A stretch of DNA of 64,000 nucleotides from the sequence record PZ049694.1. One strand, given 5' to 3'. Below the pieces are notes generated by a model, which saw only the letters and a list, made by a program, of their open reading frames with translations, had not been told where the DNA came from and ran no database searches. The translations under genes and the position numbers were made by a program. Source of the DNA: a phage. Below, piece by piece: positions 3,161 through 64,000 of the stretch; position 1 is the stretch's first letter, and each line of letters begins with the position of its first letter.

Positions 3161-4110
3161 TATAACACCTCAATGGCATTTCGTAAGCCATCCGCTTTCG
3201 CATTCAGAGCTTTTAACGATTTAGTTTGTTCTGCAATCTGGGCTTCGACTTCTTTCAGACGAGATTTGAGATATTCGCGTTCTTCTCTTAAGTTATCAAC
3301 TTTTTCTGCTTTAGGCTCTTTAATAGGCTTAGGCTTATACTCATTAGGGTTCTTCAACTTAATTTGAATGCGAGAACTGTATAACATTGAACCGTTATCT
3401 TCGGTTTCGCTGAACATTTCAACAACATCCATAGTCTGTAATATCATACGAAGTTTATAAGACAGCGAACTAACGGTTTTGTTGCGCTTATTAATTTCTT
3501 CGGCTTTCATGGTACCGAGATTACGTGAGTAGTAATAAGGAACCTGGATATCAATTGACAATGATGCGTTACCATTACCAGTTGGTTTGAATACTGCAGT
3601 AACCCAATCTTTAACATGAACTTTATTTGTACGACCGTCGCCGCCTGTGAATAATTTACGTGAATGTTTAAAAAGCATATTCACTTGGTTATTGAATTCA
3701 CAAGCAAATTTATCAGCAAATTTAGTTTCAGGAATGGTAGATAACCAATCAGCCAAATGAGTCTTTTTAACATCGTTAATAATAGTAAATTCAACTAAAT
3801 CAGTTTTAGATGTCACAGATTTAATAAAGCTCGGCTTCATAAAGTTTTTAATGTTATCGCGAGCTACAGTAGAAGATAATAAACGAGAACGTTTGAACCA
3901 TTGAAGCAGTGTCCCTAATGAATGAGAATACGCATTCTGAGTATCTTTACAGATATGATTTTCTTGGCCTGTGTATGTACCAAAATCGCGAAGAATACCA
4001 CTTACTACAACTCGGTGTGGAACATCAAATCCTAATGAACCAGAAGCACGTTGGGCATGAACGTTAGCGATAAGACCTGCAAAATAATCAACATAATGTG
4101 AACGTGTCAT
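3160..4110 (-). CDS. hypothetical protein with C-terminal coiled coil, 316 aa
   Basis: ORF with GAGAGG Shine-Dalgarno; Lys/Glu-rich heptad-like C-terminus. Confidence 0.6.
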   Translation of the reverse strand: MTRSHYVDYFAGLIANVHAQRASGSLGFDVPHRVVVSGILRDFGTYTGQENHICKDTQNAYSHSLGTLLQWFKRSRLLSSTVARDNIKNFMKPSFIKSVTSKTDLVEFTIINDVKKTHLADWLSTIPETKFADKFACEFNNQVNMLFKHSRKLFTGGDGRTNKVHVKDWVTAVFKPTGNGNASLSIDIQVPYYYSRNLGTMKAEEINKRNKTVSSLSYKLRMILQTMDVVEMFSETEDNGSMLYSSRIQIKLKNPNEYKPKPIKEPKAEKVDNLREEREYLKSRLKEVEAQIAEQTKSLKALNAKADGLRNAIEVL

Positions 4111-4138
4111 AATATTTTCCTCTCGTTAAGATAGAAAG

Positions 4139-4168
4139 ATTATACTCCAACCATCCTTGGTTGTAAAC
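4139..4168 (-). promoter_or_regulatory. T4 early-type promoter (GTTTAC -35, TATAAT -10) with inverted repeat (PeSL-like)
   Basis: minus strand GTTTAC, 18-nt spacer, TATAAT; ccaacc/ggttgg arms in the spacer. Confidence 0.5.
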
Positions 4169-4172
4169 TGAT

Positions 4173-5105
4173 TTATGATTTTAATGCATTCATTGCGTTA
4201 AAAAGTTTAGAGTACTGCAACTGGAGCTTGGTAACTACTTGTTGAGCATCACGAAGCTTAGCTTGTGCTTTGTCAAGTTCAACAGACAGTTGGTCCACAG
4301 TGCCTTTGATTTGATTATAATAGTAATCTTCGGCAGGAAGAAGACCGTTAGAGATTTCCAGTTTAGTCGACGGTGTGCCGTTAAACATAACAGGTTGTGC
4401 TGAAGCTGCATTAATCTTACCGATAGTTGGGGCGACAATAATTGACGCTTCGAACGTTGCATTTTCCTTTTTAAGATTTTGATAGTATTCAGAGTCTTTG
4501 TGCCACCATGGCGCAGGAACCTTTTTACCAATAGATACACGAGCCTGGATAGCGATATGGCCCTTATTCTTGATAGGGTTGATAATATTAAGCTCACGAG
4601 AATAAATTGCTTTAATCTGGTGAATATTATCACCTAGCACTTCCAACGCTTGGTGGAATACACGAGCAACGTTATCATTCTTAGGTTTATACGTAAGAGT
4701 GAACTCGTTCTCACTGATAACCATGATTTCCAACTTATCGTAAGTATATTTCAAATGTTTCATGTTAATTGCTTGAGGACGAATACGAGAAGCAATGGCC
4801 ATCAGATTGTTAAGGTTATTCCGGAACTGCTTAGCGAAATATTGTCCTTCACCGCCAATACAAAAATTACGAAGTTTCTGTTTGGCTAATAAACGGCTGA
4901 ACTCACCATTTTTAATGAACTCTTTAACGGGTGTGTTAGTAACGCATTCAAATTGAGTAAACTTACGAGAATTAATCCCATAATACGAACAGATTTCCTC
5001 AATCTCTTCAGGAGTCTTTACAGGCATACGGATAGGATTAGGTCCTGGGGTATATGCGTTCGAGGTAAATTCTTTGATAAGTTCTCTACGTGTAATAGAA
5101 GCCAT
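4173..5105 (-). CDS. hypothetical protein with C-terminal coiled coil, 310 aa
   Basis: ORF; GAGGA Shine-Dalgarno; same promoter cassette sequence as at 4139. Confidence 0.6.
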   Translation of the reverse strand: MASITRRELIKEFTSNAYTPGPNPIRMPVKTPEEIEEICSYYGINSRKFTQFECVTNTPVKEFIKNGEFSRLLAKQKLRNFCIGGEGQYFAKQFRNNLNNLMAIASRIRPQAINMKHLKYTYDKLEIMVISENEFTLTYKPKNDNVARVFHQALEVLGDNIHQIKAIYSRELNIINPIKNKGHIAIQARVSIGKKVPAPWWHKDSEYYQNLKKENATFEASIIVAPTIGKINAASAQPVMFNGTPSTKLEISNGLLPAEDYYYNQIKGTVDQLSVELDKAQAKLRDAQQVVTKLQLQYSKLFNAMNALKS

Positions 5106-6804: not shown

Positions 6805-7092
6805 CTAAAAGAAACTTTTTTCGGTATTTTTTCCACTGAACCAAACCGATTTCGGAATTTTCTGTAATTTTTCAGATTTAAGTTTCTCTTCCTGTTCTTT
6901 CTTATATGCATCCTTGTCGTACTGGAACAACTCTAAGGCATTCTTTTGTAGACGGTCTAAGGTAATTAAGGCTTTAGTTTTTCCTTTCAAGGAAGAGTCC
7001 TGGCGAACCTCCTCGCTATATTGCATCGTAGAACTAACCATACGATGTGCATAGAGTTCGACTGCGGCTTTAATTTTTTGCATAAAATCCAT
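6805..7092 (-). CDS. hypothetical protein, 95 aa
   Basis: ORF with AGAGGA Shine-Dalgarno. Confidence 0.5.
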   Translation of the reverse strand: MDFMQKIKAAVELYAHRMVSSTMQYSEEVRQDSSLKGKTKALITLDRLQKNALELFQYDKDAYKKEQEEKLKSEKLQKIPKSVWFSGKNTEKSFF

Positions 7093-7230
7093 AACATATC
7101 CTCTTTGATTTGTACATCATTATTTTTAAATATTTCTATGCCCTCAGTAGGTTCCTGGTGTCCTTCTTTGAGGTAAGCCATATGATTATTCATCTTTATG
7201 GCTTTTGTTACCTCAGAACTTCCTATAAGC

Positions 7231-8232
7231 TTATTTCAGTAAAGTTACTTCAGAGATTTCCTCCCAACCATCTTTATCAGTTGAAATAAAATCTGCTACG
7301 TAAAGAGCCGTACGTAATGATACATTGCGAAGACGAGATACGTTAGCCTTCATCCAGGACAATGCTTTATACGTTTCTGCATCCGTCAGACCACGTTTCT
7401 GCATCATGTCAGTAGATAATATTACATCTTCAACTCGAACCATAATCTCTTCATTAGAGTGTACTCCAAGGTCGAGATACACTGAACGAGATACTAAAGC
7501 TTGAAGGTGTGGGGCAAGTTTCGAACCGCGTTCTAACTCTTTATCGATATCAACGTTTGTAATGAAAACGATAGTACCTTCAAACTCAAATTCTTTATCA
7601 ATACCCTTATCATCGAGATAAGATGACGCAGTGCTCCAACAAACTTTGCGTTTATCTCCAGTATCTAATGCTGCTTTAAGAAGGTTCAAGATGTCCATAT
7701 CTGAGAATACGTCAACGTCGTCGATTAAGAGAACGCTGTCTGCATCACGGTTGAGCCAAAGTTGTTCGTAAAGGCCGATACCAGAGATTTTACCATTAAT
7801 GCTTTTGTATTTGATGAAACCATTATCATTAGCGTTATTAAGTGCTTTATCCAGAGAATACGTCTTACCAATACCAGCTGCACCTGAAATAATGAGTGAA
7901 CGAATTTTACCATCGATAATGCCATTCGTCATCATGTTCATTACTTTAAAGCGTTTGTTGATACGAGTTTTCATATCTTCAGTGCTTTCAACGACTGCAA
8001 CTGGTGATGTCTCAACTCCTTCCATTACGATGTCTGATTTGAAGACCCATACTCCACGTTCAGAACCGTCAATCATAACGAAGATTTTACCATCACCTAA
8101 GTGGGAACATTCAGGATTAAGCTTTGCCGGGAACCAGGTCTTTGTGGCAACATAAGAACCAGAGATTTCGTTATTACGATAGATACCTTTTTTGATTTGA
8201 ACGTTGAACATTTTATTCTCCAATTTACTCAT
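7231..8232 (-). CDS. P-loop ATPase (AAA-like), 333 aa
   Basis: Walker A GAAGIGKT, Walker B VLLIDDVD, sensor-like FITN. Confidence 0.7.
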   Translation of the reverse strand: MSKLENKMFNVQIKKGIYRNNEISGSYVATKTWFPAKLNPECSHLGDGKIFVMIDGSERGVWVFKSDIVMEGVETSPVAVVESTEDMKTRINKRFKVMNMMTNGIIDGKIRSLIISGAAGIGKTYSLDKALNNANDNGFIKYKSINGKISGIGLYEQLWLNRDADSVLLIDDVDVFSDMDILNLLKAALDTGDKRKVCWSTASSYLDDKGIDKEFEFEGTIVFITNVDIDKELERGSKLAPHLQALVSRSVYLDLGVHSNEEIMVRVEDVILSTDMMQKRGLTDAETYKALSWMKANVSRLRNVSLRTALYVADFISTDKDGWEEISEVTLLK

Positions 8233-8298
8233 TTCGTTTCGATAGGTCTATAGTATCATATCCTAAAAGCATGTACACTACTTTTTTAAAAATATTTT

Positions 8299-8327
8299 AA
8301 CCCCCTAAAGGGACCCGAAGGTCCCCA
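8299..8327 (-). terminator. stem-loop (UUCG-type) after the 8331..8612 stop
   Basis: minus strand gggaccTTCGggtccc followed by tttaggggg; near-copy of the element at 26622..26652. Confidence 0.4.
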
Positions 8328-8330
8328 CAT

Positions 8331-8612
8331 TTACTTATCGCACTTAGCAACATAATTAGGCATATCACAGAATACGGAGCGAGTAACTACTCGGCCCTTT
8401 GACCATGCTTCAGTTGCTTGTCCGGCTGTGCTATTAATATAGCTTGATCTAATGTTCTCAATACCCTGAGAATGTGAGGCATTTACCGAACCATTAGAAG
8501 ACCCAGAAGACTGGTTACCGCCAGCTCCTGCACTACCGCTGGCTGCACCCGTGGTAGCACCAACAGAGAATGCCATCATTACTGCGAATAAACCAATTAC
8601 TAATTTTTTCAT
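8331..8612 (-). CDS. secreted Gly/Ser-rich protein with signal peptide, 93 aa
   Basis: N-terminal MKKLVIGLFAVMMAFSVGA signal-like segment; two Cys near C-terminus. Confidence 0.6.
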   Translation of the reverse strand: MKKLVIGLFAVMMAFSVGATTGAASGSAGAGGNQSSGSSNGSVNASHSQGIENIRSSYINSTAGQATEAWSKGRVVTRSVFCDMPNYVAKCDK

Positions 8613-8643
8613 ATTTACCTCAAGTTAATGGTTATTTATCTAC

Positions 8644-9657
8644 TTATTTATAGTAAGAATTATGATTTTCGAGATAGACTTGTTCAAGGAAGTCATCCCA
8701 GAAACTCATATCTACTTTTTGTTGCATACCGTTCTTGGCCGCTTGTTCTGACGCATGTTCAACTTGGTCAACGATATCTTCTAGGAATTCTTGTACAGTT
8801 TTAAACGTATGTTTACCAAGCTTAACATCGAGAATAAATGGAGCATCCTGAAGTGGGTAAACCAAGTCACCAGTTTTGTAAATTTCCAATAGTTGGAGTC
8901 CACCACGACAAGCATGACTTAGAGCTTTCCAGTCAATGCCCTCATTCGCTTCAGCCTTACGAGCACGTTCGCCATATTCAGCATCAAGTTTATTCAAAGA
9001 CTGCTTAAGCTCAATAAGAGAAAGTGTTGTCTGATATTTACGACCCAACACGGTATAGAACGTTTGCGGGCCTGTTTTCTCGTGGTTATGGAATACCCAT
9101 TCACAGAACTCGTTTTCAGGGAGTCTGTGTTTGATATCTTCTACCTTAGTACGACGAAGTCTATCAGGGATTCCTTCTTGATAGTCGACCCACTGGTCAG
9201 GGATTTGATTAACTACTTTCAATACATCACGTAATGCGGCCAAACGAGAACCCTTGACACCGTATTTAGAAGCTTGCTTGCGGACATATCCTAAATAGGA
9301 TTTCATGTTAGTTGTATAAAACCGTGAACGATTGTCTTGGATAAATTTCCATACATCAGGCAAATCAGATTTAACCACTAGTTCAGGCGGAGTGTGAAGC
9401 ATATCCAATGCTACAGTTTCACCATCTGCTGCTAATTTAAAGAAATACTTAAGACTGTACAGTTCATGGTCAATATCATCTTTGGTGTTTTTAGATGATG
9501 TGTTGTTAGTGTTTTTACTCATATGCTCTTTAACATTTCCGATAAGAATATCGCGAGCAGGAGGAACAAAGATTTCTTTAAAATCGACGTCAGATTCAGG
9601 AGTAGACGTTCCATAAAGGTGGCTACCAAAGTAGCCTTTCATAATTGTTTTCATCAT
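8644..9657 (-). CDS. nucleotidyltransferase-fold protein (Pol-beta superfamily), 337 aa
   Basis: N-terminal GSHLYGTSTPESDVDF matches the G[GS]x(9-13)Dx[DE] NTase signature; ATGA overlap with upstream membrane-protein gene. Confidence 0.65.
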   Translation of the reverse strand: MMKTIMKGYFGSHLYGTSTPESDVDFKEIFVPPARDILIGNVKEHMSKNTNNTSSKNTKDDIDHELYSLKYFFKLAADGETVALDMLHTPPELVVKSDLPDVWKFIQDNRSRFYTTNMKSYLGYVRKQASKYGVKGSRLAALRDVLKVVNQIPDQWVDYQEGIPDRLRRTKVEDIKHRLPENEFCEWVFHNHEKTGPQTFYTVLGRKYQTTLSLIELKQSLNKLDAEYGERARKAEANEGIDWKALSHACRGGLQLLEIYKTGDLVYPLQDAPFILDVKLGKHTFKTVQEFLEDIVDQVEHASEQAAKNGMQQKVDMSFWDDFLEQVYLENHNSYYK

Positions 9658-10127
9658 TTAGCCTTATATTCAAGAGTAGGACAGACTTTTTCTTTACGAG
9701 CTTTAAGGTATTCACCTATTAATGATTTCTTACGTTCAATAGGTCCAAGTCCATTTTTAATTCGTTCTTGGTTTTGTGCAATGAACTCAATTTCTTTATA
9801 ATATTTTCTGTCGTTATATTTGTCTAACAACCAAGACGGACCAATTACCAACCCGGCAGAAATAAAAGCCATGACTGCTACCATTAAAATGCCTACGCCA
9901 ATTGAGGCTGGAACTAATGTCCATAGACTGCTAAAAACAAAGAATCTAGTTAAAATTTCCTGGCCAATGATTGTTACTGCTGCTAAAATCGCAAATCCGA
10001 TAATTGAAACAGACAATACTGGGATTAACGTTTTCCAAAAATAAGCACACAACGTTTTAGGGCGATTCCATGTACTATTGAACGCGGCATAAATTTTAAA
10101 GTGCCAAGAGTTTTCATTGATAATCAT
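9654..10127 (-). CDS. multi-pass membrane protein, 157 aa
   Basis: two to three hydrophobic helices then a basic C-terminal tail; translationally coupled to the NTase-fold gene. Confidence 0.6.
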   Translation of the reverse strand: MIINENSWHFKIYAAFNSTWNRPKTLCAYFWKTLIPVLSVSIIGFAILAAVTIIGQEILTRFFVFSSLWTLVPASIGVGILMVAVMAFISAGLVIGPSWLLDKYNDRKYYKEIEFIAQNQERIKNGLGPIERKKSLIGEYLKARKEKVCPTLEYKAK

Positions 10128-10136
10128 AATAATTCC

Positions 10137-10664
10137 TTATTTCAAAGTCGGGATAATAGAATCAAGATAAGCTTTAAGAGCTACAGCTTCGTCTTTGGTA
10201 AATGTAGTAACATGTGAACGTAAATCATCATTTTGGCGAATAGTTACGACATCACCATCTTCATAAGAATTCATGACTGCCAAAGTCGTGGTATAGTTTG
10301 GAGCTATTGGATTAATAATGTAAGCACCACGACTGATACCCCATTTAAGTTTAGCCTTTTCAGGTGGTTCGGATTCCAAGAATTCTTTCACCTTAGCAAC
10401 GAATGTTTTCCAGTTATCGATAGAAAGGCATTTGTCTTCAGTTTCGATATTAGCACCGTTATAAAGCCCATGATAAAAACGAGCCTGAAGGTCTCCACCA
10501 ATATTAATTGCCGATGCATGACCAGGCGGATTGAGTTTCAAAATCTCGTCTAGTTCCATAGGACAAATAGTAATACCATCATCTTCCTGAGTCAGAACGT
10601 ATACATTACCACGTTTTTCGATAGTCAAATCACCGAACAGTTCGGTTGTTTCAATTACAGTTTT
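10137..10664 (-). CDS. hypothetical protein, 175 aa (start at MKTVIETT)
   Basis: ORF; start trimmed to the ATG following the upstream stop. Confidence 0.55.
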   Translation of the reverse strand, partial: KTVIETTELFGDLTIEKRGNVYVLTQEDDGITICPMELDEILKLNPPGHASAINIGGDLQARFYHGLYNGANIETEDKCLSIDNWKTFVAKVKEFLESEPPEKAKLKWGISRGAYIINPIAPNYTTTLAVMNSYEDGDVVTIRQNDDLRSHVTTFTKDEAVALKAYLDSIIPTLK

Positions 10665-10668
10665 CATA

Positions 10669-10848
10669 TTATTCACCAATTAAAGTTTCAACAAAATTCA
10701 CCAAATCATTCTGACGAGAATCAACTTGTTTTTCATAAAAGTCTCCACAGTCATTTACTGCATGATAAGCTACATCATTTAAATCTGAATCAGCTTCACG
10801 TAAGTCATGGATAAGGTCCATCAATTTATTAGCTTGTTCACGGGTCAT
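10669..10848 (-). CDS. small protein, 59 aa (not in ORF track)
   Basis: MTREQANKLMDLIHDLREADSDLNDVAYHAVNDCGDFYEKQVDSRQNDLVNFVETLIGE; ATG overlaps the TGA of the upstream micro-ORF. Confidence 0.4.
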   Translation of the reverse strand: MTREQANKLMDLIHDLREADSDLNDVAYHAVNDCGDFYEKQVDSRQNDLVNFVETLIGE

Positions 10849-10955
10849 TTTACCATACTCGTTTCAATAAGATTCACTATGCCGTTTACCATGTTATAAG
10901 TAAACATCGGATAATTGTATTGTACTACAACATAAGCGATAAGCAAAAGTTTCAT
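10845..10955 (-). CDS. hydrophobic micro-ORF, 36 aa
   Basis: GGAGAACAAA then ATG; MKLLLIAYVVVQYNYPMFTYNMVNGIVNLIETSMVK; ATGA-coupled to next ORF. Confidence 0.3.
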   Translation of the reverse strand: MKLLLIAYVVVQYNYPMFTYNMVNGIVNLIETSMVK

Positions 10956-10974
10956 TTTGTTCTCCGTTTGTTTT

Positions 10975-11013
10975 GATAGGACTACTATAACATAGTCCTA
11001 CCAAGATGTAAAC
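10975..11013 (-). promoter_or_regulatory. PeSL-like early promoter (GTTTAC -35, TGnTATAGT -10) with 10-bp inverted repeat around the -10
   Basis: gataggacta...tagtcctatc arms flank the -10; -35 abuts the upstream stop codon. Confidence 0.5.
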
Positions 11014-11249
11014 TACCGATTGTGTTTTAAATGTTGATAAAGTTCTTCAACTTGTTTAGGGTCCAAAACAATTAGGTCATTTTCTTGGCGAAGATAAATC
11101 CATCCCTTATCCCCAGGACCATTTTTACAAAACATCACCGTCGTCATATCGTCATCTTCAGCGCTTTCAGGTAAAAGTTCAAGTACACCGTCTTCAGATT
11201 TTCCAGTATAATCGTAAAGCATAATATCCTCACATAATCTCGTTAACAT
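11013..11249 (-). CDS. hypothetical acidic protein, 78 aa
   Basis: ORF in early chain. Confidence 0.5.
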   Translation of the reverse strand: MLTRLCEDIMLYDYTGKSEDGVLELLPESAEDDDMTTVMFCKNGPGDKGWIYLRQENDLIVLDPKQVEELYQHLKHNR

Positions 11250-11409
11250 ACATTTGCAATTCGGAGTGGGCTTCGGCCATCTTTTTCATAGCTCTGTTAA
11301 TGTCGATGTCTCCATCTTCGCAACCATGAGCATTTTCCCAATCAGATACCGCATTAGCGTACTCTTCAATCAAAAACATTAACTTAGAAATTTTTTCTTT
11401 ACGTGACAT
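11230..11409 (-). CDS. hypothetical protein, 59 aa (start at MSRKEKISKL)
   Basis: track ORF runs through the promoter/terminator; internal ATG has a GAGGAG Shine-Dalgarno. Confidence 0.5.
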   Translation of the reverse strand: MSRKEKISKLMFLIEEYANAVSDWENAHGCEDGDIDINRAMKKMAEAHSELQMYVNEIM

Positions 11410-11413
11410 AACG

Positions 11414-11465
11414 TTCTCCTCTAGTAAGTAAGGACTACTATAACACAACCTGAGGAGAAGTAAAC
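11414..11465 (-). promoter_or_regulatory. PeSL-like early promoter whose hairpin pairs the downstream Shine-Dalgarno
   Basis: GTTTAC, 17-nt spacer, TATAGT; spacer arm ttctcctc pairs with gaggagaa (the Shine-Dalgarno of 11230..11409). Confidence 0.5.
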
Positions 11466-11473
11466 TGATAGAT

Positions 11474-11505
11474 GCCAAAAAGCCCCAACCATAAGGAAGG
11501 GGCTA
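11474..11505 (-). terminator. rho-independent terminator after rI
   Basis: minus strand agcccc-ttccttatggtt-ggggct then TTTTT; near-copy of the terminator at 27324..27355. Confidence 0.65.
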
Positions 11506-11510
11506 GTAAA

Positions 11511-11813
11511 TTAGATAGATGTAGGCTCTAATTTTATTTTCATGAACTCGGCAAATTGTCTGGCAGTTTTTATGCCTTGTTCATGACATTCAAATGCATC
11601 ATCACAGGGGCTATTTTTGTAATGCTTTACCATATACTTATAGAATTTTTCAGAATTCTCGACATTTTGAATTTCAAACAAAGTATATACGTTTTTAATC
11701 CCTGATTCCATAAAGTTGTCAAAATATGGGTCGGTGTACGCAGTACCAACGATAGGAGTTGTTGCTGCAAAAAACCCCAGCATCGCCATGACAGCTATCG
11801 CTCTTAAGGCCAT
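11511..11813 (-). CDS. rI: lysis-inhibition regulator (antiholin) rI
   Basis: signal-anchor N-terminus and DP.FD.FMESGI..VY.LFE...E.S..FY.......KN.PC...FEC...G motif matching recalled T4 rI; sits next to tk as in T4. Confidence 0.85.
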   Translation of the reverse strand: MALRAIAVMAMLGFFAATTPIVGTAYTDPYFDNFMESGIKNVYTLFEIQNVENSEKFYKYMVKHYKNSPCDDAFECHEQGIKTARQFAEFMKIKLEPTSI

Positions 11814-13040: not shown

Positions 13041-13243
13041 TATTCTTCTACATGTTGTTTACGGCCTTTCTTATCGATAAAAGTATATTCAACGAATGTT
13101 CCGATGTAGTCTTTATCTACATCATGTGGACTATTAATTGGACATTTGGTACGACAAATGCGTTCCCATTGACGAATAATTACTGCCTTATTCTTTGGGT
13201 CATATGGATGTGGATAATGTATATTCATAATAATGGTTCCCAA
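13016..13243 (-). CDS. hypothetical protein, 75 aa
   Basis: ORF. Confidence 0.45.
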   Translation of the reverse strand: MGTIIMNIHYPHPYDPKNKAVIIRQWERICRTKCPINSPHDVDKDYIGTFVEYTFIDKKGRKQHVEEYCLKVTWL

Positions 13244-13722
13244 TCAACAATCACAATTTCTAGTTTAGTGGAATACGTATCTAAAATCTCTTCGATGACA
13301 TCCCAGTTTCCACCACCAATACCTGCACCAATTCTTGGCATATAAATTACAGGCTTTGTTATCTTATTCTTTCCGAATTCATTTAATTCTATTATACAAT
13401 TCATTAAAGCATAGTACTCAAAATTAGGTCCCGGCTCAAACTGTGTATAAAGATTAAAGCAATAAGCTTTATGGGTCTTAAAATATTTTTCATAAACCGA
13501 ATAAGTCCCGAGTTTAGACTTGTCTCCGAATTCGGTTTGAAGTTTATCGGCTTCTAAAATTTTTGGATAAGCCTTTGCTAATTGTCCTGCCACACCAGCG
13601 CCCATTGTATGAAAACAATTACACCCATGAGCAATATTATTACCTTTAGAAAACAGGGCGACAATATCGCCCTTGATATAGTTTTTAATCACTTGCTGCA
13701 AGTCCTCTAGTATAAGAGTCAA
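13225..13722 (-). CDS. macro-domain protein (ADP-ribose binding/processing fold), 165 aa
   Basis: GDIV...NIAHGCNCFHTMGAGVAGQL resembles the macro N..GGGV.A motif; second glycine-rich loop PRIGAGIGGG. Confidence 0.6.
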   Translation of the reverse strand: MTLILEDLQQVIKNYIKGDIVALFSKGNNIAHGCNCFHTMGAGVAGQLAKAYPKILEADKLQTEFGDKSKLGTYSVYEKYFKTHKAYCFNLYTQFEPGPNFEYYALMNCIIELNEFGKNKITKPVIYMPRIGAGIGGGNWDVIEEILDTYSTKLEIVIVDWEPLL

Positions 13723-19413: not shown

Positions 19414-19654
19414 CTCGGTCCCATGATTTGACCATTAATTCGGACATAAATTCTTCAATGCGCGTTTCTTTAGATGGACTTTCACTATTAGAGACCGCAA
19501 GTTTGTAATCTGCAATAGGACAGAACATATCAAGGTCCATATTAAGGTCGTCTTTGATTTTTTCTTCTGACACATCTTTATCGTATGTATACAGATAACT
19601 ATCACACGATTCTGATTTAATGTAAATTGCTATACTCATCTCAAATTCCTGCAT
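19403..19654 (-). CDS. hypothetical acidic protein, 83 aa
   Basis: ORF overlapping both neighbours by a few codons. Confidence 0.45.
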   Translation of the reverse strand: MQEFEMSIAIYIKSESCDSYLYTYDKDVSEEKIKDDLNMDLDMFCPIADYKLAVSNSESPSKETRIEEFMSELMVKSWDRDDE

Positions 19655-20127
19655 TCGGTAATAAAACGTTCAACTTCATTATTCTTGGCTTTTATCTTGT
19701 CTTTATGTTCTTGTAAACTACTTTTAATAAGATTAATAATGATGCCTACAGTACCTCCACCAATTATACCGCCAATTATACTTACGATAGTAGATGCTAA
19801 TAAGATAGCGATAATATCTAGTACAGCAAAGGCACTTACTTTAGTACTAAAAAACCATACCGACGGTACAAATATAATCCATCCTGTTATCCATTGGCAC
19901 TTATTGAAAAACTTTTCAAGCTCAGCTTGAGTTGTTCGTATTACTTCATCGATAGGTTGATATCCATTAATGTATCTATTCACGATAATACCTGCTGGCT
20001 GGTCGATTTTAAATTCTTGGCAAATACGTTTCACTAAGTAGGATGGACATCCTGTCCAATCTACTGAATAGTATGAAATACCTTCGTTGCCATCGTCTAT
20101 ATTAGACCAATATGTTTTGTTAATCAT
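19636..20127 (-). CDS. membrane protein with C-terminal ERFITECR tail motif, 163 aa
   Basis: soluble N-domain, two hydrophobic helices, C-terminus ...NNEVERFITECRNLR; ATGA-coupled to upstream gene. Confidence 0.6.
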   Translation of the reverse strand: MINKTYWSNIDDGNEGISYYSVDWTGCPSYLVKRICQEFKIDQPAGIIVNRYINGYQPIDEVIRTTQAELEKFFNKCQWITGWIIFVPSVWFFSTKVSAFAVLDIIAILLASTIVSIIGGIIGGGTVGIIINLIKSSLQEHKDKIKAKNNEVERFITECRNLR

Positions 20128-20814: not shown

Positions 20815-21120
20815 TTATTTTCCTCGACATTCTTTAATGAAATTTTCTAGATTGGTAGATTCAATAGCTTTTTTACGAGCTTCTGCGTGTTCTTCTTCGG
20901 ACAATTTACGTTTATAATTGACCCAGACATTATGGTCGAAACCAGTCGTGGCATATAATAACAATGCTCCAACGAATAGCAAAAACGGCGATAAGAATAC
21001 AAAACCAGGAACACCATCCATATCGTAAGCCTTTTGTAATACTGCAACAGAAAGAGCTACGTAAAAAGGTGATGCAAGTATTGTTAAAAGACCAATTCGG
21101 TTGGTTTCTGTTAATTTCAT
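20815..21120 (-). CDS. membrane protein with C-terminal ENFIKECR tail motif, 101 aa
   Basis: two hydrophobic helices; C-terminus ...NLENFIKECRGK. Confidence 0.6.
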   Translation of the reverse strand: MKLTETNRIGLLTILASPFYVALSVAVLQKAYDMDGVPGFVFLSPFLLFVGALLLYATTGFDHNVWVNYKRKLSEEEHAEARKKAIESTNLENFIKECRGK

Positions 21121-21457: not shown

Positions 21458-22414
21458 TTATTTGAAAGGTTTTACCATATGGAAATTTTGTTTGAAACGT
21501 TTTACGTAATCGTCGTGTCCTAAGCTTTGGTACATACTTACTACTTTGCTATAATTTTCCCAAGCGAACTCACGGAACCATCCTGATGTGATTGATGTAC
21601 AGACCTTTTCCAATGCCATCATGAAACTGGCTTCAGGGTTAATTTTAAAGTCATTAGGAATCTGAGAACGTTCTAACGCTAGTACACATGATTCTTCATA
21701 TACACCGGCCAATTTGACAATTTCTGGTAACGATTCGAACTTCTCGCGTGAGGTCATGACTTCAGAACCGTCTTTCATATAAAATGTATAAGCCGGACGG
21801 TCTGTTAGTGCAATGGCTTCATGAATAGTATCATGGTCATACGTATAGATGTCATCTTTAAAGAACGCACTTTTAGAAGTGTCAAGAACTGGGTGAGCAT
21901 AGTTCAAGGTTTCTTTCTGGCGTTTCAGCATAATTTCAGTAAGTTCATCGTTCAGTGTAACACCTTTACCACGAAGATACTGAATATGGTTCATAGTCTT
22001 TAAAAAGAATGGATTATTTTTCTTGAAACGATGAGACATCTTAATTGCAAGACATATCTCAGGAGTTGCCCAGTAAAACCCGTTCAAACGGTCTTTAGTC
22101 AAATTTTTCTTGGCGTATTTTAAAAGGTCATAAGAAGACGTGAAATCTTCAGGAGTGAGTTCACCTACTAATTCACGGACATTAGTGATTGCCGGAACAA
22201 TATATGCTTCAAAATGAGTTTCGCGTCCATTATGGAAGCATTTGAAAACTTGGACATCAGGGTTATCTTGGTGAACATATACACCCATCATTTGATTTTT
22301 GAATGCGTTCCAAGAACCTTGGTCCGCAATAAAGTCCCAATCGCTATTTTTGATAGCGCTAGAATCAATAAGACCGTGATAGTGAAGTGCACGAGAACCA
22401 ATAACTAACATCAT
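21458..22414 (-). CDS. hypothetical protein, possible divergent nucleotidyltransferase fold, 318 aa
   Basis: N-terminus MMLVIGSRALHYHG...SDWDF loosely parallels GS...SDVDF of ORF 8644..9657; GAGGA Shine-Dalgarno. Confidence 0.45.
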   Translation of the reverse strand: MMLVIGSRALHYHGLIDSSAIKNSDWDFIADQGSWNAFKNQMMGVYVHQDNPDVQVFKCFHNGRETHFEAYIVPAITNVRELVGELTPEDFTSSYDLLKYAKKNLTKDRLNGFYWATPEICLAIKMSHRFKKNNPFFLKTMNHIQYLRGKGVTLNDELTEIMLKRQKETLNYAHPVLDTSKSAFFKDDIYTYDHDTIHEAIALTDRPAYTFYMKDGSEVMTSREKFESLPEIVKLAGVYEESCVLALERSQIPNDFKINPEASFMMALEKVCTSITSGWFREFAWENYSKVVSMYQSLGHDDYVKRFKQNFHMVKPFK

Positions 22415-22740: not shown

Positions 22741-22938
22741 TTAGCAAGAATAACTAGACGATACCCAGCCTTGAACAGTGATACTATTGTGGGATAATGA
22801 GATCGCGTCCTGGAGATTCAGACCTGCGTTATCTTCAATCCATAACGTAACTTCTTCGCGTTCTTCTGTTGCAATTTGGAACAGGTTTTCCAGAGCAGCT
22901 ACTGCCGTACGTACAGCACAATCTAATTCACGAGACAT
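22741..22938 (-). CDS. small protein, paralog 3 of tandem family ending ...GWVSSSYSC
   Basis: 65 aa; shares N-terminal MS(K/R) and invariant C-terminal GW[VI][SA]SSxxC with 22948..23220 and 23230..23535. Confidence 0.55.
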   Translation of the reverse strand: MSRELDCAVRTAVAALENLFQIATEEREEVTLWIEDNAGLNLQDAISLSHNSITVQGWVSSSYSC

Positions 22939-22947
22939 ATGGTTTCC

Positions 22948-23220
22948 TTAGCAAGTGTGAGAAGATGCGATCCAACCACCAGTTTCGAGGCTTAGGTTGT
23001 AGTCGTATTGGTAAACGTCGGCCCATTCAGCATAGCCGTTTTTTGTACAACGTTCAAGGTCGGCTTTAAGCTGTCCGGGTGAATGATATGTTCCACCCAT
23101 ACCATAAGCTGGATACAAGTCGAATGTTGTGTTTTGTTTATCAGCAATTTCTTTGGCAGCCTCAATAGCTGCATAGATTTTTGCTACAGCTTCGGCCAGT
23201 TCGGTTTGTTCTTTAGACAT
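22948..23220 (-). CDS. small protein, paralog 2 of tandem family ending ...GWIASSHTC
   Basis: 90 aa; tandem with 9-nt spacers; AGGA Shine-Dalgarno. Confidence 0.55.
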   Translation of the reverse strand: MSKEQTELAEAVAKIYAAIEAAKEIADKQNTTFDLYPAYGMGGTYHSPGQLKADLERCTKNGYAEWADVYQYDYNLSLETGGWIASSHTC

Positions 23221-23229
23221 AATGATTCC

Positions 23230-23535
23230 TTAGCACATCGCAGAAGACGAAACCCAAGCACCTTCAGTAATAACGTAACCATTACCTTCACGCTTAACAT
23301 CGCCACCATTATTTTCAATTTCATCTTTCATCCACTGGGATACGATTTCACCCTTAGGATAATAAGTACGACCGCTACCATAATCACCTACAGAAAATGA
23401 TACGGCATATTGGTCCGCGATCTTTGTTGCTTCTTCTTCGATACGTTCAGCTTGATTCAGAAGTTTATAAATTGCATCTGAAGCGGATTTGGCATCATTA
23501 AACTCTGGTACTTTAATTTCAATAATCTTACTCAT
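23230..23535 (-). CDS. small protein, paralog 1 of tandem family ending ...AWVSSSAMC
   Basis: 101 aa; ATGA-coupled to upstream membrane-protein gene. Confidence 0.55.
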   Translation of the reverse strand: MSKIIEIKVPEFNDAKSASDAIYKLLNQAERIEEEATKIADQYAVSFSVGDYGSGRTYYPKGEIVSQWMKDEIENNGGDVKREGNGYVITEGAWVSSSAMC

Positions 23536-23891
23536 TTTCTACATTCCTTAATAAAGTTTTCGATTGTTTCATTTTCACGTCTAGCTAGGAGTTCATTATA
23601 ACTAATCATTTGAGAAGCGTAAACCTTTTTATTTTTCTTGTTATGGTTTATAAAATCGTAGTAAAAATAGACTACAGTACAAAATGATGCGATGGATGCA
23701 AAGGCTTGGGTATACCGTAAGTCCCGCCATTGGTCTATGAATCCGCCAGTGTTACCTATAAATCCTAATACAACTCCGTCAATAAGAAATCCAACTAATC
23801 CAAAGGCAAATCCCATGCCAATACTCATAATAAAAATTAGAATGTTCTCACCAAGAGAAGGCCATACGGTTAAGAGTTGAGGCTTTTGCAT
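23532..23891 (-). CDS. membrane protein with C-terminal ENFIKECR tail motif, 119 aa
   Basis: hydrophobic helices then ...ETIENFIKECRK. Confidence 0.55.
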   Translation of the reverse strand: MQKPQLLTVWPSLGENILIFIMSIGMGFAFGLVGFLIDGVVLGFIGNTGGFIDQWRDLRYTQAFASIASFCTVVYFYYDFINHNKKNKKVYASQMISYNELLARRENETIENFIKECRK

Positions 23892-24295
23892 CTTATTTCC
23901 TTAACGAATTCCATAGCTTCTTCATATTCATACTTTTTAACAGCTTCATCATACTGAGCTTGGGCTTTTGCGCACTGAACTTTCCACTCACGAACTCGGG
24001 CTCTGTGATGACGGCCTTGGTACCAATATCCCACCCAGTTAATAGGCATTAATAAAAATGGTACAATAAACGACCCGGCTATAATAAGTAAAAACACTGC
24101 ATCAGACGATATAACTTTATTGGAATCTAAAATAGCTCCTATAATCATAAAGATTAAAAATGCTAAAGCTAAAATAGGACCAAACAACACTTCATTAGGA
24201 ATTAATTTACGTTTGTATTCGTATGCCCAGGGCTTAATTGGCATGTACAGGGTTGGCTTTGACATATTCTCTACATTCCATAATAAATTGCTCAA
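23870..24295 (-). CDS. membrane protein with related C-terminal motif (EFVKEIRCK), 141 aa
   Basis: two hydrophobic helices; start may be an internal ATG. Confidence 0.5.
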   Translation of the reverse strand: MSNLLWNVENMSKPTLYMPIKPWAYEYKRKLIPNEVLFGPILALAFLIFMIIGAILDSNKVISSDAVFLLIIAGSFIVPFLLMPINWVGYWYQGRHHRARVREWKVQCAKAQAQYDEAVKKYEYEEAMEFVKEIRCKSLNS

Positions 24296-28020: not shown

Positions 28021-28097
<77 letters not shown>

Positions 28098-28100
28098 GAT

Positions 28101-28175
28101 TGGTGACCCTGGCTGGTTTCGATCCAGCTACCTATCAGTTATGAGCTGACAGCTCTCCCATTGAGCTACAGGGCC
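28101..28175 (-). tRNA. tRNA with CAT anticodon (Ile2-type by T4 analogy, or Met), CCA encoded
   Basis: acceptor GGCCCTG/CAGGGTC, D-arm GCTC-AATGGGA-GAGC, anticodon arm GTCAG-CTCATAA-CTGAT, T-arm GCTGG-ATCGAAA-CCAGC; 3 nt from tRNA-Arg. Confidence 0.75.
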
Positions 28176-63848: not shown

Positions 63849-64000
63849 TATGATACTAATTCAATCCATGCAGGACGCAGAACATCTTGCACCATTCGGA
63901 CTAATTCTTTCTTAACAAGATTCGGATTATCAGATGTTGTTAATACAATACCTTCACGAGAAGTTTCTTCCAGAATATCTTGAACAGTCAATCCCATCAC
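63848..64000 (-). CDS. rnlB: RNA ligase 2 (Rnl2), C-terminal part; gene continues past the right edge
   Basis: minus-strand C-terminus MGLTVQDILEETSREGIVLTTSDNPNLVKKELVRMVQDVLRPAWIELVS matches recalled T4 Rnl2 C-terminus. Confidence 0.85.
   Translation of the reverse strand: MMGLTVQDILEETSREGIVLTTSDNPNLVKKELVRMVQDVLRPAWIELVS

Follow-up and report, generated by a model that had tools for sequence, protein, structure and literature searches.

Does the nucleotidyltransferase gene at positions 8644..9657 of a phage DNA stretch of 64,000 nucleotides (record PZ049694.1; the whole stretch is the window analysed here) work together with the membrane protein gene that it overlaps, or does it encode an enzyme with a task of its own? 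An annotation made from the letters alone (the first-pass annotation) had offered two readings, a signalling-nucleotide synthase paired with a membrane effector, or a nucleotide-modifying counter-defence enzyme. The open reading frame (ORF) and its motif-bearing N-terminus were found as that annotation described them, on the minus strand, which also carries every gene around it. The product comprises 337 amino acids and begins MMKTIMKGYFGSHLYGTSTPESDVDF. The first ATG shares four nucleotides with the TGA of ORF 9654..10127, the 157-residue membrane protein gene, and the ATGA overlap can be seen in AAATGATGAAA. By the nearest GenBank record, translation starts from the second ATG, giving 336 residues and an overlap of one nucleotide. 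We assign a probability of roughly 0.6 to the following answer: the protein, NrdC.11, would be a template-independent RNA 3'-end nucleotidyltransferase of the RlaP type, serving in counter-defence tRNA repair independently of its neighbours.

The source of the DNA is a T4-like coliphage. Positions 7000-11000 are 99.6% identical to Escherichia phage vB_EcoM_JQD51, and many other Tevenvirinae coliphages show 92-98% identity over the same interval. Transcription runs through tk, rI, several small ORFs, mobD.1, the 157-residue membrane gene, the nucleotidyltransferase, a 93-residue Gly/Ser-rich protein and an nrdC.10 homolog, and the region is the T4 nrdC-mobD early region. The product of ORF 8644..9657 is 94% identical over its full length to T4 NrdC.11 (NP_049709; Y05G, 'Uncharacterized 38.9 kDa protein in nrdC-mobD intergenic region'), labelled 'nucleotidyltransferase' in RefSeq, and shares its position between mobD.1 and nrdC.10. 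The two loci differ in the slot upstream of nrdC.11, which holds the HNH homing endonuclease mobD in T4 and a PHROG-944 membrane gene here, and in the extra secreted Gly/Ser-rich gene between nrdC.11 and nrdC.10, absent from T4. ORF 8644..9657 is the nrdC.11 of a T4-like phage and an ortholog of the T4 gene of that name. Neither the gene nor its family is new: the gene is annotated already, and the literature assigns it to RlaP; its function in the phage is what we infer below. The gene is widespread, with tblastn detecting it in 1518 phage records (nearly full length in 1444). An exhaustive search of 1.8 billion cluster representatives returned 3454 relatives with E ≤ 1e-3, of which 813 have E ≤ 1e-30.

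The nucleotidyltransferase call was borne out by a family match, an invariant motif and a Pol-beta fold in the structure model. RlaP (PF10127) was matched with E 2.3e-12 and 47.6 bits against a cut-off of 23, and was the sole family above threshold; the next-best nucleotidyltransferase family in Pfam scored 13.7 bits. The protein also matches phrog_388, 'nucleotidyltransferase' (E 4.6e-137). When 40 homologs of 34-94% identity are aligned, G11, S12, G16, S22, D23, D25, Y132, R231, K244, H248, R251 and P268 show no variation, and conservation of D85 is 90% or higher. Because the RlaP match is this strong, G11, S12, D23 and D25 are invariant and D85 is nearly so, the motif is not a chance resemblance. 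Judged from the alignment, the conserved set is the Pol-beta triad together with a basic cluster in the second domain. The G11-S12 pair (9622..9627), D23-x-D25 (9583..9591) and the third carboxylate, D85 (9403..9405), lie on the minus strand within an N-terminal core of about residues 1-118 (9304..9657), delimited by conservation and by alignments to the RlaP profile and to solved nucleotidyltransferases. R231, K244, H248 and R251 fall at 8905..8967 on the same strand, in the helical bundle of the C-terminal domain.

The AlphaFold2 model of NrdC.11 (mean predicted local distance difference test score, pLDDT, 91.4; predicted template modelling score 0.74) comprises an N-terminal alpha/beta nucleotidyltransferase core followed by a C-terminal domain, residues 119-337 (8647..9303, minus strand). 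The latter consists of a long helix, a beta-rich insert at residues 155-209 (9031..9195, minus strand), a helical bundle and a long terminal helix at 317-336. The first-pass description of about 280 mostly helical residues after the motif therefore fits the helical bundle and misses the insert. The insert, lying between the long helix and the C-terminal bundle, falls within the least conserved part of the alignment, and judging from the model it may serve substrate binding in the long form of the enzyme specifically. When the model was compared with the PDB by Foldseek, no entry reached E ≤ 0.001. The highest-ranking structures, at E about 3e-3 and probability 0.99, were kanamycin nucleotidyltransferase/ANT(4'), the nucleotidyltransferase-like protein 3c18, HalB of the Hailong system, Tam41, LinB, AadA and MNT. 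The solved neighbours that count as significant are all Pol-beta nucleotidyltransferases whose second domain is helical. This fold comparison had been proposed in the first-pass annotation, and it returned a nucleotidyltransferase fold with two of the families named there, KNTase and MNT, among the best matches. No cGAS, CD-NTase, OAS or CCA-adding enzyme was among the top Foldseek matches. Searches of solved structures with the single sequence and with three family profiles found no sequence relatives, in a library that lacks the PfRlaP crystal structure.

RNA repair was first shown in T4, where PseT and RnlA counter the PrrC anticodon nuclease. A role for NrdC.11 in such repair is suggested by its relatives. 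A 2025 preprint names T4 NrdC.11 as an RlaP, within similarity cluster 5 (PMC12776372). Two Pseudomonas enzymes assayed there, PfRlaP and PaRlaP, label only RNA among E. coli macromolecules, with no DNA or protein labelling. They require a 3'-OH, add one or two nucleoside monophosphates to RNA, accept dATP too, and prefer Mn2+ and the broken end of a tRNA mimic (PMC12776372). The bacterial RlaPs also improve aminoacylation of repaired tRNA that is short of one anticodon-loop nucleotide (PMC12776372). From a comparison of jumbo phages, RlaP was predicted to restore nucleotides lost to RloC-like nucleases prior to ligation, and its distribution was found to parallel that of RNA ligases (PMC7824862). 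T4 tolerates deletion of the stretch from nrdC.11 to mobD.3 (PMC9825161), as fits an accessory role. NrdC.11 and the RlaP family have in common the GS/DxD/acidic triad and, by the model, probably also the arrangement of an N-terminal nucleotidyltransferase domain and a C-terminal helical domain; some cellular relatives of NrdC.11 lie in an RNA-repair gene context. In the PfRlaP crystal the last helix packs onto the N-terminal domain (PMC12776372); the NrdC.11 model ends in a long helix, which may or may not pack in that way.

On this basis, D23, D25 and D85 would hold two divalent metals, and NrdC.11 would add one or two nucleotides, template-free, to the 3'-OH of broken RNA. Its main substrates would be tRNA halves short of a nucleotide excised by a host anticodon nuclease such as RloC, after which the polynucleotide kinase/phosphatase PseT of the phage and its RNA ligases RnlA and RnlB could reseal a full-length tRNA. 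The membrane gene, the secreted Gly/Ser-rich protein and NrdC.10 would be neighbours in a hyperplastic early region and not parts of one machine. The RNA substrate, the addition of one or two nucleotides and the counter-defence role are all proposed from bacterial RlaPs of another subcluster and from genomic context. The nucleotide-modifying counter-defence enzyme offered as the second of the two initial readings thus came close to the explanation preferred here, RlaP-type RNA 3'-end repair, the role itself being the conditional part. If NrdC.11 does restore RloC-type losses, it would complete the phage repair kit, and the retention of nrdC.11 in more than 1500 phage genomes would be explained. 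As the literature already contains both the prediction of such repair and assays of bacterial relatives, the window holds no new kind of system.

Gene neighbourhoods in cellular genomes give independent support for the RNA-repair role. Among 80 cellular loci with full-length NrdC.11 relatives (31-53% identity), 14 have an RNA-repair marker within 6 kb: RtcB in 10, Ro60/TROVE in 3, PseT-like in 3 and RnlA-like in 1, some loci having more than one. With a 3.5-kb clustering threshold the counts were 6 for RtcB and 4 for Ro60/TROVE. In 17 of the 80, the next gene downstream encodes a canonical RlaP (PF10127 E 3e-51, whole profile). This count is based on clustering; a phmmer count of 33/80 was set aside, as it also catches the query gene via the shared core. 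Pairs of a long NrdC.11-like gene and a canonical short RlaP gene occur, for example, in loci L089, L101, L117, L122, L135, L139, L151 and L161. Going by these gene orders, long and short RlaP-family enzymes appear to stand in tandem within RNA-repair operons, often with RtcB and Ro60/TROVE nearby. The presumed ligase and kinase partners exist in this phage lineage: the JQD51 genome encodes a full-length RnlB, PseT and RnlA at 76%, 75% and 67% identity to T4, respectively, and the window itself ends within rnlB (RNA ligase 2), of which the C-terminal 50 codons are present at 63851..64000 on the minus strand (tblastn with T4 RnlB, 88% identity, E 2.7e-23).

Several observations weigh against RlaP-type RNA repair by NrdC.11. 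The PF10127 match covers residues 7-136 only (profile positions 23-143 of 249). Profile alignment of the NrdC.11 family with canonical short RlaPs by hhalign (93.7% probability, E 1.9e-7) spans only 85 N-terminal columns, and the C-terminal domain with its beta-rich insert could not be aligned to canonical RlaP. Canonical RlaPs have about 250 residues, and NrdC.11 is some 80 residues longer. Given this N-terminal-only match, NrdC.11 is a long form (about 310-340 residues) whose second domain has diverged. The assayed enzymes, PfRlaP and PaRlaP, belong to cluster 1a, as opposed to cluster 5 of NrdC.11 (PMC12776372). Across 78 diverse viral loci with an NrdC.11-family enzyme, an RNA ligase or kinase lies within 5 kb in only 3, and none adjoins the gene in T4-like phages; in the window, rnlB is about 54 kb from nrdC.11.

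Three other accounts of the enzyme, one of them in two forms, were weighed against RNA repair. The divergent C-terminal domain is peculiar to this family and might confer another specificity, so that intact tRNA or RNA ends (as in MenT-like host takeover), a protein (DrrA- or GlnE-like AMPylation) or a small molecule (as for KNTase and ANT) might be the substrate; the lack of an RNA ligase adjoining nrdC.11 in T4-like phages agrees with this. We regard such a substrate as unlikely, as RlaP is the only family above threshold by sequence, bacterial RlaPs label neither protein nor DNA (PMC12776372), and cellular full-length relatives adjoin RtcB, Ro60 and canonical RlaP. With ANT, DrrA and GlnE, structural agreement goes no further than the superfamily, at 8-16% identity. 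For the small-molecule-modifying enzymes at the top of the fold matches, kanamycin nucleotidyltransferase/ANT(4') and 3c18, identities to NrdC.11 are 8-11% and TM-scores 0.24-0.37, with no sequence-family match. The fold match to HalB raises a further account. In the Hailong system, according to a review, HalB is a tyrosine-primed oligodeoxyadenylate (oligo-dA) synthase, and oligo-dA keeps the tetrameric membrane channel HalA closed. NrdC.11 might then be a HalB-like template-independent oligo-dA synthase that the phage uses in counter-defence, for instance to restore the supply of oligo-dA and so hold the host HalA channel shut. Bacterial RlaPs accept dATP as donor (PMC12776372), and Y15, Y124, Y132 and Y228 of NrdC.11 are invariant or nearly so, the equivalence of any of them to the priming tyrosine of HalB being putative. 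HalB (PDB 9dbh) has about 217 residues and 16% identity to NrdC.11, and no similarity was detected by sequence or by profiles. Bacterial RlaPs add one or two nucleotides only and need an RNA 3'-OH (PMC12776372), and the first rank of HalB among the solved folds may only reflect a library that lacks an RlaP structure. We find oligo-dA synthesis by NrdC.11 barely credible.

The remaining account is the synthase-plus-effector pair of the first-pass annotation, in which the membrane protein and the enzyme would form a two-gene module and a nucleotide or oligonucleotide signal would control the membrane protein in a CBASS- or Hailong-like manner, for instance in superinfection exclusion or lysis control. 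That the membrane gene precedes the enzyme gene, with stop and start overlapping, was confirmed. In the viral set the membrane gene lies directly upstream of the enzyme in 15/78 loci, 13 of them with the four-nucleotide overlap, and in 45 of the 46 loci that have a membrane-family gene it precedes the enzyme on the same strand, no farther than about 2.6 kb away. Overlap between genes is, however, routine in this genome, where 24 of 71 same-strand adjacent pairs overlap, ten by exactly four nucleotides; the stop/start overlap is for this reason ordinary tight packing and no sign of a signalling pair. T4 retains NrdC.11 in the corresponding 16-kb region with no membrane-family gene and with mobD in the slot. 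Another, variable gene separates the membrane gene from the enzyme in about 30 of the 78 viral loci, and the membrane family is absent from 32/78 viral and all 80 cellular loci. ICP1 (gp169), Kuravirus IMEP8 and Aeromonas phage 65 each have a membrane-family gene whose surroundings lack the enzyme. A conserved effector beside a synthase was rejected on the adjacency counts (15/78 viral, 0/80 cellular loci). A CD-NTase-, OAS- or CBASS-like synthase was rejected likewise: searches gave no CD-NTase or SMODS match in Pfam and none in PADLOC, and no such fold was among the top matches. The membrane-family profile matched neither HalA nor any other solved chain in the PDB sequence set (best E 0.87, to unrelated proteins). 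With the neighbourhood this variable, a two-gene module is highly improbable, and both it and the HalB-like account are kept alive solely by the HalB fold match. The more specific proposal that the PHROG-944 protein and NrdC.11 are a phage Hailong-like pair, or that NrdC.11 acts against a host Hailong system, with a short oligonucleotide gating a channel in the phages that have the overlap, derives from that fold match and from the gene order. HalA has no sequence similarity to the PHROG-944 protein, which is not a conserved neighbour, and there is very little to recommend this proposal. That many T4-like phages have the membrane gene upstream of the enzyme is best explained by synteny inherited around a hot spot of insertion. 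The analysis shows the slot upstream of nrdC.11 to be a variable insertion site and removes the synthase-plus-effector reading.

The contents of this slot (seen in loci L013, L018 and L020-L042, at locus positions 3300-5004) are diverse. It holds mobD in T4 and in L013, a ProQ_C-like protein in L045, and unrelated soluble proteins of 140-185 residues in Klebsiella, Enterobacter and Citrobacter phages. Most of these variable-slot genes overlap the start of the enzyme gene by four nucleotides.

The 157-residue protein encoded in the slot here (9654..10127, minus strand) was characterized by hydropathy, a match to phrog_944 (E 2.9e-52), a family alignment and the neighbourhood census. As the first-pass annotation had it, this is a membrane protein: hydropathy shows two or three hydrophobic segments within residues 29-102 (9822..10043), followed by a charged tail. 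Homologs of the PHROG-944 family are present in 1090 phage records. The family alignment displays an N-terminal SWH...LCxYFW motif and a C-terminal K-x-CP motif, with C27, Y29, K147 and C149 invariant. No relatives were found in Pfam or the PDB. The reach of the family extends beyond T4-like phages to Vibrio phage ICP1 (gp169), Kuravirus IMEP8 and a jumbo Yersinia phage, and members of the family lie at 4001-4420 in locus L004, 3923-4345 in L005 and 3992-4456 in L006. The membrane gene is probably an independent early gene.

ORF 21458..22414 (minus strand, 318 residues) had been put forward as a second, nucleotidyltransferase-like paralog of the enzyme. Its nucleotidyltransferase-like N-terminus was supported by an invariant motif and by the predicted fold, and the paralogy was not. 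The protein matches PF23942 (DUF7277, E 9.9e-28) and PF23940 (DUF7275, E 4.3e-79) in Pfam and no other sequence family. G6-S7 (22394..22399), D25 and D27 in D25-x-D27 (22334..22342) and E69 (22208..22210), all on the minus strand, are invariant in 35 homologs. Comparison with the product of 8644..9657 gave a best BLASTP E of 2.6 and an hhalign probability of 0.2%, and the Pfam families differ. As neither BLASTP nor profile comparison shows a relation, the two proteins are members of separate families, and their paralogy is rejected. The structure model (mean pLDDT 90.8) matched the tRNA-nucleotidyltransferase toxin MenT1 (Rv0078A; 8an4) with E 4.4e-3, probability 1.0 and a target-normalised TM-score of 0.50 over 185 columns. 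Further solved matches were the nucleotidyltransferase-like protein 5uvd, tm1012, Cid1 and CCA-adding enzymes. MenT1 is the closest solved fold, and GS, DxD and Glu are conserved in the phage protein; identity is 9%. About 130 residues at the C-terminus of the phage protein, part of DUF7275, form an additional domain, which is highly conserved. A match of the DUF7275 profile to the RNase L KEN domain (E 0.068) was not significant and was rejected. The literature search returned no paper mentioning DUF7277 or DUF7275. We flag DUF7277/DUF7275 as a separate, putatively MenT-like nucleotidyltransferase family in the same phage.

Two groups of small genes occur around ORF 21458..22414. Four small predicted membrane proteins, at 19636..20127, 20815..21120, 23532..23891 and 23870..24295, have no Pfam match and share a C-terminal motif (ERFITECR, NFIKECR, NFIKECR and EFVKEIRC, in that order), which suggests a paralogous set flanking the ORF. 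Three tandem small ORFs (22741..22938, 22948..23220 and 23230..23535) share a C-terminal W-[VI]-[SA]-S-S-x-x-C, have no significant Pfam match, and are apparent tandem paralogs.

Downstream of nrdC.11, a putatively secreted Gly/Ser-rich protein and then an AAA-like protein follow in the direction of transcription, in line with the first-pass gene order. The former (8331..8612, minus strand; 93 residues; phrog_2243) has a signal-peptide-like N-terminus by hydropathy and sequence. Its gene is a sporadic accessory gene, found in 103 phage records against 1518 for the enzyme and in 2 of the 78 viral loci. A host origin was considered on a weak, sub-cut-off YbgS-like Pfam match and rejected, E. coli genomes giving no DNA matches. 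The nrdC.10 ortholog (7231..8232, minus strand; 333 residues; phrog_1250), at 77% identity to T4 nrdC.10, is a P-loop/AAA-like protein whose AAA_22 and AAA_16 matches are weak and below cut-off. It is found in the flanks of 37/78 viral enzyme loci; no other link to the enzyme was found. On the other side, upstream of the membrane gene, lies the mobD.1 (Y05I) ortholog (10137..10679, minus strand), with Pfam domains T4_y05I_N and T4_y05I_C and 43% identity to T4 mobD.1. NCBIfam gave no matches for any of the five proteins searched. A promoter and terminator scan of 7000..11600 returned counts not above those of shuffled sequences and was uninformative for operon structure.

Elsewhere in the window, a Macro-domain protein (PF01661, E 3e-6, above cut-off) is encoded at 13225..13722 in the tk-vs region and is named 'phosphatase' in related records. 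The window contains two tRNA genes only, Arg-TCT and Met-CAT, adjacent on the minus strand at 28021..28175. In the GenBank record of JQD51 (PV204681.1, inspected at 16212-66000 and 79000-125000), product names seem to be displaced by one coding sequence: 'nucleotidyltransferase' stands on the 93-residue gene, 'thymidine kinase' on a 70-residue gene beside tk, and the 'RNA ligase' and 'polynucleotide kinase' labels each one row ahead of the true gene.

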